From Trueperaceae bacterium (lineage in GTDB: Bacteria > Deinococcota > Deinococci > Deinococcales > Trueperaceae), in assembly GCA_965213705.1 (NCBI GenBank), contig OZ243913.1, forward strand, positions 3,296,001 to 3,360,000: DNA of 64,000 nucleotides, written 5' to 3'. The notes beneath the pieces were generated by a model that saw only the letters and a list, made by a program, of their open reading frames with translations, searched no databases and was not told where the DNA came from. Shown in pieces: positions 46,842 to 49,992 of this stretch (within the stretch, counting starts at the first letter, position 1; each line of letters opens with the position of its first letter). The position numbers and the translations under genes are program-made.

Positions 46842-47495
46842 TTAGGCCGCGACCAAACCTTTCAGCTTGTCGTACGCCGCCTCGGCCCGCTGTTTGACGA
46901 CGCTGTAGTCTTTGGAGCGGCCCGCCATCATCACGTGCATGTTCATGTGCCGGTCTACATCGCCGAAAATCGAATTGAGGACTTCGACCTCTTCGCGGCT
47001 GCGTAAGCTAGCGTCGTCGCGGAACATCGCCGGGTAGATGTACTCGAACTGCTGGTCGCTGATGACGCCGGACAGGTACTGCTCGAGCACGTCCAGGTAA
47101 GGTTTTAGGTCGCTGCGGACGGTCGGCGTCGTTTTAGTGGTTGCACCGTCGGCTTGAGGCACTTGGGCAAAACCCGCGTCGAGCGTCTGCGGGTTGATGT
47201 CCCAGTTGTCGAGGTCGTACACGGCCTCGCCGTCCTTGAACAAAATCACCTGCGGCGACTCGTGGCGGATGCCGGTCATCTCACTCACGAGGTTGCTGGC
47301 AGGCCGCGCCTCGACCACGCGGATGATGCCGACCATCATGTCTTCGCGCGGCTCCAACTTCTCTTGCAAAAAGCCGAAGCCCTGCATCGTTTTGTGGCAG
47401 GTGCCCGCTTTGAAAATGACGCTCGTTGGGTACTTGTCCAAAAACTGGTTGAGGTCTTCGGGGCTTGTTAGGTTAACGACTCGGTCTCTAAACAT
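46842..47495 (-). CDS. abxC: Atypical bacilliredoxin (BrxC/YtxJ family, AbxC-like) with helical C-terminal extension
   Basis: FKAGTCHKT active-site motif and RHESPQVILFKDG. Confidence 0.8.
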   Translation of the reverse strand: MFRDRVVNLTSPEDLNQFLDKYPTSVIFKAGTCHKTMQGFGFLQEKLEPREDMMVGIIRVVEARPASNLVSEMTGIRHESPQVILFKDGEAVYDLDNWDINPQTLDAGFAQVPQADGATTKTTPTVRSDLKPYLDVLEQYLSGVISDQQFEYIYPAMFRDDASLRSREEVEVLNSIFGDVDRHMNMHVMMAGRSKDYSVVKQRAEAAYDKLKGLVAA

Positions 47496-47636: not shown

Positions 47637-47755
47637 GTTTAACGTCTAAGCTCAGCCGCCGTGGGCGGCAGTTCGTTTCAAAGCAGCACGGAGACGCCAA
47701 TGCCGCAAATGAGCAAAACTGCCAAGCCCACGGTCGGCTGCAGCGGGTGTTATGC
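47637..47755 (-). mobile_element. Integron attC site (cassette 2)
   Basis: Minus strand: GCATAAC-acccg-CTGCAGC-CGACCGTGGG...CCCACGGCG-GCTGAG-cttagac-GTTAAAC; pairing leaves an unpaired G and A on the left arm; the upstream ORF stops inside TAAC. Confidence 0.9.
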
Positions 47756-48046
47756 CGCGCTTTCATCGTATCGTCCTCGCCCAAGCGAGAAAAGAACAAA
47801 GTCCGTCGTTGCTGCTACGAGAGAGTCATGCACTATGAGGTGCTGGTATGCTTTGTCATACCAGCCAACCCGAAAAGAACCATCCCGTTCCTCTATGAAG
47901 GTGTTGGGACTACTCCGCTTGTCATAGGAGAAATGCAATAGGCGTTTGCATTCCTCAGGGTGGCTACGGAAGTAGGCAGCGATTTCTTCCGCAGAAAGCG
48001 ATGCCGCGTCAATCTCCAAGGGCGGTAGGTAAGTCGGATGGGGCAT
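47750..48046 (-). CDS. Cassette-borne hypothetical protein (98 aa)
   Basis: ORF fills the space between two attC sites and its TAA lies in the R'' box. Confidence 0.75.
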   Translation of the reverse strand: MPHPTYLPPLEIDAASLSAEEIAAYFRSHPEECKRLLHFSYDKRSSPNTFIEERDGSFRVGWYDKAYQHLIVHDSLVAATTDFVLFSLGRGRYDESAA

Positions 48047-48062
48047 AGTTAAGCACCGCACG

Positions 48063-48176
48063 GCATAACGGCCTAAGCTCAGGGGTTCGGACGTGTTGAA
48101 GATGCAAGTCATGCTCTAAATCTGCGCTAGATTTTCGGCAGGGCGAATCCGAATCCTTTGCAGCGCCTAGTTATGC
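48063..48176 (-). mobile_element. Integron attC site (cassette 1)
   Basis: Minus strand: GCATAAC-taggcg-CTGCAAAGGATTCGGA...TCCGAACCCCTGAG-cttaggcc-GTTATGC. Confidence 0.88.
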
Positions 48177-48350
48177 ACGACCTGACGTAACAACTGCAAG
48201 CTGAGGCAGTGGTTTTGAAACGAGTCTCGTTTTCAAGTCGCTTTGAGTTTCAAGCGCACGCTGGTAAAGCGTTGACAGGTCGTGATTAGCTTCTTTCTCG
48301 AGTTCAAGCCGCGCTTCACGAACTTCTTCGACAACTACATCTTCCCACAT
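48171..48350 (-). CDS. Small protein (59 aa) of the type found downstream of PIN-domain toxins; putative antitoxin
   Basis: MWEDVVVEEVREAR N-terminus; GGAGG RBS; stop inside attC. Confidence 0.65.
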   Translation of the reverse strand: MWEDVVVEEVREARLELEKEANHDLSTLYQRALETQSDLKTRLVSKPLPQLAVVTSGRA

Positions 48351-48352
48351 AC

Positions 48353-48436
48353 TTACACCTCCATGAGTTCTTGTGGTGTACACAGAACCGGCGTGTGAAC
48401 GTTTAAGTCCTGGTTAAGTGCTTGCACCAGAGGGCG
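48353..48436 (-). pseudogene. 3' remnant of a PIN/VapC-family gene
   Basis: RPLVQALNQDLNVHTPVLCTPQELMEV* resembles the P-x-(I/L)-C-T-P-x-E-L C-terminal signature; in-frame stop immediately upstream. Confidence 0.6.
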
Positions 48437-48512
48437 TTAACAGAAATACTAGCCTGAGTGCTGAAATCTTGATGGGTGTATTTGCAAGATTTGATACTTG
48501 CTGGCTAAGTGA

Positions 48513-48629
48513 GGTGAGGAAGGCAGGATTCGAACCTGCGACATGCTTCTCGTTACGCTCTCTGAGAAAACATGCAACCGTCGCTCTGTTTGGAGTTGAC
48601 AGCTACCTTCTCCGCTCAGTCACTTCCTC
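48513..48629 (-). ncRNA. tRNA-like RNA with non-canonical anticodon arm and very long variable arm
   Basis: GAGGAAG/CTTCCTC acceptor stem, TG-ACTGAGCGGAGAAGGT D-arm, GCAGG-TTCGAAT-CCTGC T-arm, 3' A-CC-T. Confidence 0.75.
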
Positions 48630-48741
48630 ATTCTTGACGAATAGCCTACAAATTAATCACTTTGGCGCGGCGTGAAAAGTCCGCTGGACGAAGTGTAAAT
48701 TAAGTCTCACGTAACAAGCCTTTCTTCTTGGGCAATTCGCT

Positions 48742-49992
48742 TTAGTTCACCATCTTCGTGCGCCGCGACTGGAAGTCTTGTAGCACGTACTGCCCGATGG
48801 TGTGCGGCGTGGTGAAGTAGGCTTTGCCCCGCGTCATCTGCGAGACGCGCTGCACAAAGGCGATGAGTTCGGGGTCCCTCGCCAGCATAAACGTGTTGAT
48901 TTGAATGCCCTGGCGGCGGCAAGCGCCGACCTCGCGCAGGGTTTCGCCCAAGACCATCGGGTCGAGGCCGTAGGCGTTTTTGTAAACGCGCCCGTTCGGC
49001 AGGGTGATGGCGGACGGTTTGCCGTCGGTAATCATCACGATTTGCTTCATGTCTTTGTTCTGCCGCTTGAGGATTTTTTGGGCCAGTCGCAAACCCTCGG
49101 CGGTGTTCGTGTGGTACGGCCCGACCTGGGCTTGAGCGAGCTTCGCCAGAGGGATTTCCTCGGCGCTGTTATGAAATAAAACGAACTTGATAACGTCGCC
49201 GCGGTACTGGGTGTGAATCATGTGGGCGAGTGCCAGCGCGACCTGTTTGGCCGGGGTGAAGCGGTCCTCGCCGTAAAGAATCATCGAGTGCGAGCAGTCG
49301 AGCATGACCACCGTCGCCGCCGACGAGTGATATTCGGACTGCATCACTTGCAAGTCGCCGTAGTCGAGTTGGAGTTTGCCGTCTTCAAGCCCGTGCTTGG
49401 CGGCGTTTTTAAAGGTCTCGCCCATGTCGATGTTCATGGTGTCGCCGAACTCGTAGGGTTTGGACTCGGAAATCGCCTCGACGCCGGTCGTTTGAAACTT
49501 GGTGTCGTGCGCGCCGATGGAGCTTTTGCCCGCGCCGCCGAGCACCTCTTTCAGGGTGCGGTAGCCCAAAAAGTCGATGGCCTTGTTGGTGAGTTCGAAC
49601 TTCACCTGGCCGGGGTCGCGGTCGGGGCCTTGGCCGCCCTGACCGGGCGCGTTGGGGTCGCCCGGTTCGTCGCCGCCCTGGGGTTTGAGGTAACCCTCTT
49701 GCTCGAGCCGCTGCGCGAGTTCTTTGACCATCTCGCCGAGCTTCGAGTCCATCCAGTTTTCGGCGTTCATCGCCTGTTCGATGGTCTGCTCATTCACAAG
49801 CTCGTTGTTGATGAGCGCCTCGGCGATGGCGTCGTAGAGGTCTTGCATGGTTTGCTGGTAGTTCGGGTCGGGGTCCCAGGGGTTGCGCTGGAAGCCGGAC
49901 TCGAGCAGGCGGTCCTGAATCATCTTCATCAGGTCGGCCATGTCGAGGTCGTCCAGGGTCGCCTCGTATTTGCTGTAGCGGGTGGCGGGCAT
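48742..49992 (-). CDS. VWA domain-containing protein
   Basis: MIDAS motif DCSHSM, TNT, ITDGKP. Confidence 0.9.

Follow-up and report, generated by a model that had tools for sequence, protein, structure and literature searches.

A two-site attC array without an integrase gene in a Trueperaceae genome and its unnamed cargo protein family

Genes and attC sites of the locus

The locus lies in a window of 64,000 nt (the whole stretch of DNA that we analysed, whose positions are used below) from a Trueperaceae genome, G000, which consists of one contig and is 98% complete. Read along the minus strand, on which all its features are encoded, it starts with upstream backbone, a gene for a VWA-domain protein (48742-49992; Pfam PF13519), followed by an oversized tRNA-like gene (48512-48630), what is left of a gene for a PIN-domain toxin, its final ~25 codons (48353-48430; 87% match to G001, a genome of the same genus) and a 59-aa ORF (48171-48350), the partner of the PIN gene and its putative antitoxin; the same gene follows an intact PIN gene in G001. 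Next come two attC sites, the proximal one at 48063-48176 (114 nt) and the distal one at 47637-47755 (119 nt), which are 307 nt apart and delimit a cassette with a 98-aa cargo ORF (47750-48046). Downstream backbone follows with a gene for a BrxC-domain protein (46842-47495; Pfam PF11009) and, like the VWA gene, this gene is also found in G001. An earlier note, made from the sequence alone, had seen a return to GC-rich backbone after the last attC; the 145 nt beyond it are backbone, as judged from their 88% match to G001, but their GC content is 52%, the same as that of the cargo ORF (brxC has 58% and the genome 61%).

The same note had described both attC sites as well formed, 119 and 114 nt long and with AAC...GTT core ends, all of which was confirmed by the sequence and by a covariance model. 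The distal site (GCATAAC...GTTAAAC) is composed of an R'' box GCATAAC, a 4-nt spacer, an L'' box GCTGCAGC, an L' box GCTGAGC, a 6-nt spacer and an R' box GTTAAAC, with the crossover expected at G|TT, 47643/47642, whereas the proximal site (GCATAAC...GTTATGC) has spacers of 5 and 7 nt. The consensus of attC R boxes is RYYYAAC/GTTRRRY; the invariant AAC and GTT triplets are present in both sites and, outside them, no box departs from the consensus at more than one position. Usual attC central spacers are 5 and 6 nt long and unpaired; those of the present sites measure 4/6 (distal) and 5/7 (proximal), not 5/6. Only 5 of 12 outside sites have 5/6 spacers, so exact spacer length is not a strict attC criterion; the 4/6 type was also seen in L066 and L114, and the 5/7 type in L103-L116 as well as in arrays that adjoin intI in Trueperaceae.

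The bottom strand of the sites corresponds to the + strand of the window. The extra unpaired G claimed for the L boxes does exist on the coding strand, but the bottom strand, which is the one that folds, has a C there, where the aadA7 and VCR model sites have G as their first extrahelical base; the second extrahelical base of the bottom strand is T in both sites. The two bases are placed as is usual for attC, the first at position 4 of the L boxes and the second 3-7 bp beyond it. A top-strand G at the extrahelical position was likewise found in 7 of 12 outside sites with a score of at least 12. The L boxes pair at 7 of 7 positions in the distal site and, in the proximal one, through 5 Watson-Crick and 2 G:T pairs that can form only on the bottom strand. 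Accordingly, all 10 core pairs are possible on the bottom strand for both sites, against 8 of 10 on the top strand of the proximal one. Compared with shuffled sequences, folding was strong for the distal site (z of -3.6/-3.7) and weak for the proximal one (-1.7/-1.3), and bottom-strand pfold, calculated with an approximate constraint, was 0.51 and 0.14, respectively; the modelled circle junction, in which all 7 R-box bases are paired, reached 0.89. As top-strand pfold values were similar, folding alone cannot choose the strand.

A scan of both strands of the 4.25-Mb genome with an attC grammar yielded four matches (the two sites, one at C1:2507398 and a poor one), compared with none on one block-shuffled strand. 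However, the grammar had been loosened only after these two sites were known. For this reason a covariance model was trained on 14 sites that lie in other genomes, 8 of them near IntI-like genes and 6 being neighbours of matches to the distal-site pattern, not matches themselves. All training sites were chosen with the same grammar, which makes the independence of the model partial, and, because the MAFFT alignment of the first 14 sites misaligned long ones, 4 long and 2 other sites were swapped before the model was made. The two sites scored 39.7 (distal) and 32 bits (proximal), with rough E-values of 2e-7 and 1.6e-5, as the top two matches of the window, both on the + strand, so that the covariance-model check proposed for them came out positive; the next match in the 64 kb had 15.2 bits, at least 17 bits lower. 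A BLAST search of the genome gave no further copy of the sites.

The long type of the proximal site (GCTGCA..GGAT...CCCCTGAGC) turns up again in arrays next to intI genes of Trueperaceae; this long attC type is peculiar to the family. In three Trueperaceae genomes of our set (L040-L043; G058, G059 and G060), one of which, G060, has two intI loci, intact or split intI genes adjoin arrays whose attC sites measure 111-113 nt and have spacers of 4/7 or 5/7 nt. The distal site is of a different type from the usual long one of the host, and its left arm is common to sites in Proteobacteria and Chloroflexota records, a likeness that would agree with an outside origin of cassette 2.

Cassette 2 extends over 426 bp from crossover to crossover (47643-48068, minus strand). 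As the earlier note had stated, it begins with GTTATGCCG, which is complementary to its end over exactly 9 nt, and both ORFs stop within TAAC, the 98-aa one in the distal site and the 59-aa one in the proximal site. The description of a complete mobile cassette holds for completeness; mobility would require an integrase in trans, as no IntI was found in the genome. In one sample, from which the genome possibly comes, two minor contigs diverge directly behind GTTA in the distal R' box (one of them with a depth of 4.4 versus about 450 and 30 nt aligned), and a 41-nt minor contig stops at the G of the proximal GTT. Such contigs leaving at attC borders may come from other organisms, and their junctions lend weak support to cassette exchange. 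The junction of an excised circle was not found in two contig sets, an assembly product that drops rare forms.

The cargo protein and its relatives

The cargo protein had been presented as unknown and it is indeed nameless, yet its family is large and conserved: an exhaustive search of a library clustered at 50% identity retrieved 113 representatives at E <= 0.001, 40 of them at 1e-10. A word-index search gave 5 near-identical proteins, and single-protein locus searches found no relatives. Four long phmmer matches among the 113 (P0021, P0086, P0104 and P0114) turned out, on checking, to be unrelated repeat proteins and were discarded. An alignment of 58 sequences displayed the conserved motifs SxDKRxxP, VGW and AxxDYxLFSxGxxR, and no form longer than 303 aa was found, which is a weak negative. 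Pfam gave no family at E <= 1 for the cargo, and PADLOC, NCBIfam and PHROGs matched neither the cargo nor, as a family-wide result, its 57 aligned relatives.

The structure predicted from the alignment had a mean pLDDT of 91.9 (40 when predicted from the single sequence) and consists of two helices, three strands and one helix, an alpha-alpha-beta-beta-beta-alpha domain. The Foldseek comparison suggested earlier for this ORF produced no clear fold (best E of 0.21 in PDB and 0.09 in BFVD), a PDB sequence search gave a best E of 0.25, and a VIA-align fold search with the model a best Z of 3.7. The lack of a clear match for the predicted fold in these searches does not by itself prove a new fold.

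To describe the genomic setting of the family we used 122 loci with relatives, 42 from genomes and the best 80 of 200 from metagenomes, collected with search patterns biased to Acidobacteria. Matches to the attC model flanked the relative on both sides in four of them (L138, L142, L148 and L168), with one weak flank in L138 and L168 (E of 0.2 and 0.44); L138, L142 and L148 are Verrucomicrobia records, and L228 has an attC match shortly downstream. With attC matches to the model at 4-5 of 122 loci, relatives in this Acidobacteria-biased sample are for the most part not carried on cassettes. Most of the other loci, largely from Acidobacteria, contained solo genes with changing neighbours. A crude test for cassette ends was positive for 12 of 118 relatives versus 4.2% in controls, a difference too weak to rely on.

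We consider it rather unlikely that the attC sites are decayed relics that no longer recombine and the cargo a silent passenger without selection in this genome. Such a state would be in line with the unusual spacers of both sites and with the apparent lack of a promoter or Shine-Dalgarno sequence for the cargo (none was seen, and a promoter scan remained at chance level), as well as with a broken allele (P0003, P0005), in which an insertion splits the cargo gene of a near-identical strain behind Ile72. Yet arrays from outside contain both spacer types as well, the bottom strand of either site allows all 10 core pairs that were tested, and a full-length cargo copy exists at 84% identity (P0002). 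A minor contig departs at window position 47834, the same point as the interruption at Ile72.

As for function, the likeliest role for the cargo, which we propose tentatively, would be that of an orphan immunity protein against interbacterial toxins. In P0022, the cargo domain is fused to SMI1/KNR4 (profile positions 2-123 of 125, E of 7.8e-5), with a score of 23.7 that lies under the Pfam cut-off of 25.4. In a Bacteroidota clade, it precedes a C-terminal domain with a precomputed Imm40 match, which three HMMER checks failed to reproduce and whose nearest Atlas cluster is 15% Imm40. Fusions of this cargo/Imm40-like kind, of ~260 aa, were observed at L124 (a Cyclobacteriaceae record), L169, L171, L172, L175, L180 and L197; four of the seven have cassette-like ends, and the attC model finds no site there. 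In L232, an Imm1 gene lies immediately downstream of a cargo relative. Among the neighbouring ORFs scanned around relatives (148 of 157 and 94 of 184), most were housekeeping genes, accompanied by some IS, integrase and toxin-antitoxin genes and by one Imm1, and none of the 242 belonged to a polymorphic-toxin family. The fusions and the Imm1 neighbour weakly suggest a role in toxin immunity. The earlier note had pointed to a trend of cassette cargo being related to defence or stress; such a role is conceivable here, and the few clues to function, which are weak, point to toxin immunity.

A small anti-phage protein that acts on its own would be, in our opinion, a less probable identity for the cargo than a toxin-immunity protein. 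Its relatives are solo, often lower-GC genes without a constant neighbour, some of them beside toxin-antitoxin and IS genes, and, as a base rate, about 18% of the tested Vibrio cholerae cassettes of unknown function, including one for a 64-aa protein, had anti-phage activity according to the accessible part of that study (10.1101/2024.07.02.601686). Nevertheless, the fusion partners are immunity-like and not defence effectors, none of the 58 family members matched the PADLOC profiles (2023 library), and the 58-row alignment contains no invariant His, Cys or Glu. Of the two, we retain a possible immunity role. This well-folding, widespread family, with neither a name nor a structural match, is a target for both phage and toxin-protection screens.

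Integrases, the sister locus and the origin of the array

We found no IntI in G000, where the best TIGR02249 match reached 34 bits versus a cut-off of 265, in agreement with tblastn, and no intI trace at the array locus itself. The motif resembling attI in G001 was not found at the G000 locus either; attI has no general model. The element, in which two attC sites lie less than a few kb apart while no IntI was found near them or elsewhere in the genome, is therefore a CALIN; an intI gene beside the array, as in complete integrons, is not present in G000, and G001 has a stub alone. Across the 128 genomes of the family, many of them incomplete, 7 had an IntI over the cut-off and 20 had matches to the attC model (6 and 19 without the unpublished G111), so that integrons appear to be a real but patchy feature of Trueperaceae. 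A literature search by title and start of abstract, with subscription papers mostly outside its reach, returned no description of an integron in Trueperaceae, Truepera or Deinococcota, and the string 'Deinococc' is absent from the main text of a CALIN survey and of IntegronFinder 2.0, whose figures or supplements may list Deinococcus-Thermus. No literature joining integron, attC, SMI1 and immunity was found.

A third attC site of G000, of a canonical 58 nt (L005 6399-6456, i.e., C1:2507398-2507455), is shared with G001 (L120), and is followed by toxin-antitoxin-like pairs that differ between the two genomes. The G000 pair is presumably ParE-like, with what we take to be an IS1-like element upstream, and this small array presumably lies between partly duplicated 5'-end copies of a methylmalonyl-CoA mutase-type gene.

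The orthologous locus of G001 has both flanks, the VWA gene and brxC, at 88-94% identity, and its right junction, GTTAAACTTTTCC, is identical to that of G000. Between the flanks it contains a UPF0150 fragment, an intI stub, an attI-like sequence, a DUF4258 cassette and a long attC. The stub is the 5' part of an intI gene on the opposite strand, divergent from the array; it contains a frameshift, breaks off after about 90 codons and has 88% identity with the G023 IntI over 50 aa. The DUF4258 cassette is toxin-antitoxin-like with 10-nt end complementarity. The 87% match between the two genomes spans 48054-48430, and at 48430 it ends within cassette 1, whose front (the 5' ~455 nt) is missing in G000; one contig of the sample possibly behind this genome, which may also come from another organism, continues the PIN gene past that point. 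The intact cassette, with a 157-aa PIN gene, the 59-aa partner and 9-nt end complementarity, is located in a different G001 array (L027), which indicates that cassettes were exchanged between loci and genomes. That array (L027 5868-7379) comprises two cassettes and an attI-like site, without intI; besides the PIN/partner cassette, it contains a 186-aa ORF with no Pfam match.

The place of the intI stub and attI-like site of G001 is occupied in G000 by the tRNA-like gene. With 39 bits for the Rfam tRNA model, it has D and T arms of class II type, an acceptor stem of 7-8 bp, no clean anticodon loop and an ACCT end; among the host tRNAs it aligns best with tRNA-Ser, being about 26-29 nt longer, and ARAGORN at default settings does not call it. 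Searches of 127 family genomes, of GTDB and IMG/VR by pattern, and of phages and plasmids gave no close relative. A loose pattern retrieved tRNA-like genes of comparable excess length both in viral contigs and, within the same order, in four genomes of a different family. The latter (L261-L264; G157, G158, G221 and G253) share a conserved tRNA-like RNA of ~130 nt with a long internal domain and no Rfam match at gathering score, which stands beside an aconitase-like gene in two translated loci. ARAGORN also reported in G000 two separate tmRNA genes with different tags (C1:2604421-2604788 and 4112539-4112901) and one doubtful permuted tmRNA.

Together, these comparisons make it probable that the array, a two-site CALIN, is what remains of a small chromosomal integron from which a deletion took intI, attI and the front part of cassette 1. 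IntI recognises the folded bottom strand of attC by means of the extrahelical bases and exchanges a single strand at G|TT; circular cassettes integrate at attI and older ones shift downstream. An integrase like those of other Trueperaceae would have bound the folded bottom (+) strands of the present sites and cut them at G|TT. Since integration at attI pushes older cassettes downstream, cassette 2 would be the older one, integrated first from a circle, and the PIN/partner cassette the newer one, placed ahead of it afterwards. A later deletion or replacement would have done away with intI and attI, together with most of the toxin gene, leaving the tRNA-like gene in their place, and the array would no longer be able to move unless IntI came in trans. 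The loss of the platform end is indicated by the only ~25 toxin codons that are left in G000, and the cut inside the gene of cassette 1 argues for a deletion there. The broken intI, attI-like site and different cassette of G001 likewise point to intI loss over stray insertion, as read from the two sequences; the order of events cannot be given from one sister genome.

Insertion of the cassettes at a secondary attG site by an integrase acting in trans, with intI and attI never present here and the G001 stub having arrived separately, seems quite improbable to us. That route has been demonstrated and, in the accessible portion of the source, many small CALINs are without intI remains (10.1101/2022.09.11.507474); G000 and G001 have other small arrays without intI, and G000 has no intI trace at this locus. 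It fits less well because the right junction is common to both genomes and platform remains exist (in G001, intI, the attI-like site and a cassette follow one another as they do in an integron), and cassette 1 of G000 is cut within a gene. A reading of the hairpins as chance palindromes, terminators or REP-like repeats, for which one could cite a terminator-like hairpin on each strand of the distal site, at chance level, is ruled out by the model scores (the two best in 64 kb, with a margin of at least 17 bits), the cassette exchange with respect to G001 and the complementary cassette ends, and it also disagrees with the presence of one ORF per unit with its stop within TAAC and of no second genomic copy by BLAST.

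Beyond the loss of the platform, a bolder and somewhat doubtful proposal would join both lines of evidence: the cargo might found a new immunity or defence family with an unmatched fold that circulates as an integron cassette among Verrucomicrobia, Bacteroidota and Deinococcota, and the two Trueperaceae genomes might catch the birth of a CALIN by intI loss.

Comparison with known systems

Thousands of CALINs have been catalogued and the type of element described here is ordinary; it is a known kind of element in a new host group and with a new cargo family. With respect to named immunity families, SUKH-1 (PF09346), Imm40 (PF15569), Imm1 (PF14430) and Imm59 (PF15597) are likewise small alpha/beta proteins, scattered and mobile, and are the ones found fused to or beside cargo relatives. 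However, the cargo itself matches no named immunity profile, and no cognate toxin lies upstream in the scanned loci; its Atlas score of 0.81 for Imm59 is no more than a lead.

tRNAs of irregular form that adjoin toxin-antitoxin genes have already been described, and the tRNA-like gene resembles the allo-tRNAs, as far as the consulted part of their description goes, in being irregular, long and adjacent to a toxin-antitoxin pair (PMC5389517). In that same portion, allo-tRNAs have an 8/4 or 9/3 acceptor branch (PMC5389517), whereas the branch is 7/5 or 8/5 here, with an ordinary Ser/Leu-type D arm; with an acceptor stem of 7-8 bp and a T stem of 5 bp, the gene thus falls outside the allo-tRNA definition.

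Sedentary chromosomal integrons share with this array, in the available sections of the work on them, the attC anatomy, the toxin-antitoxin cassettes and a bottom-strand pfold above 0.1, the latter calculated here with an approximate constraint (PMC5371416). According to those sections, the bottom strands are part of the template for leading-strand synthesis in 25 of 30 of them, an orientation that stabilises the arrays (PMC5371416), and the same is probably true here, as judged from a weak GC skew. Unlike sedentary integrons, G000 has only two sites, with 4/6 and 5/7 spacers, and no intI, attI or Pc was found in it.

The SALIN/attG route also leads, in the part of its description at hand, to a small array between housekeeping genes without integrase (10.1101/2022.09.11.507474), but it differs from the present case in that platform remnants are present at the orthologous locus of G001, which favours loss. 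The array resembles CALINs in its two attC sites, in the absence of IntI from the genome and in its unnamed cargo. In the accessible text of the CALIN survey, an intI pseudogene is near only 15 of 279 CALINs; unlike those, the stub sits here in a sister genome, at the orthologous locus. The origin of CALINs is debated between intI loss and stray insertion, and the G000/G001 pair provides a concrete case for loss.
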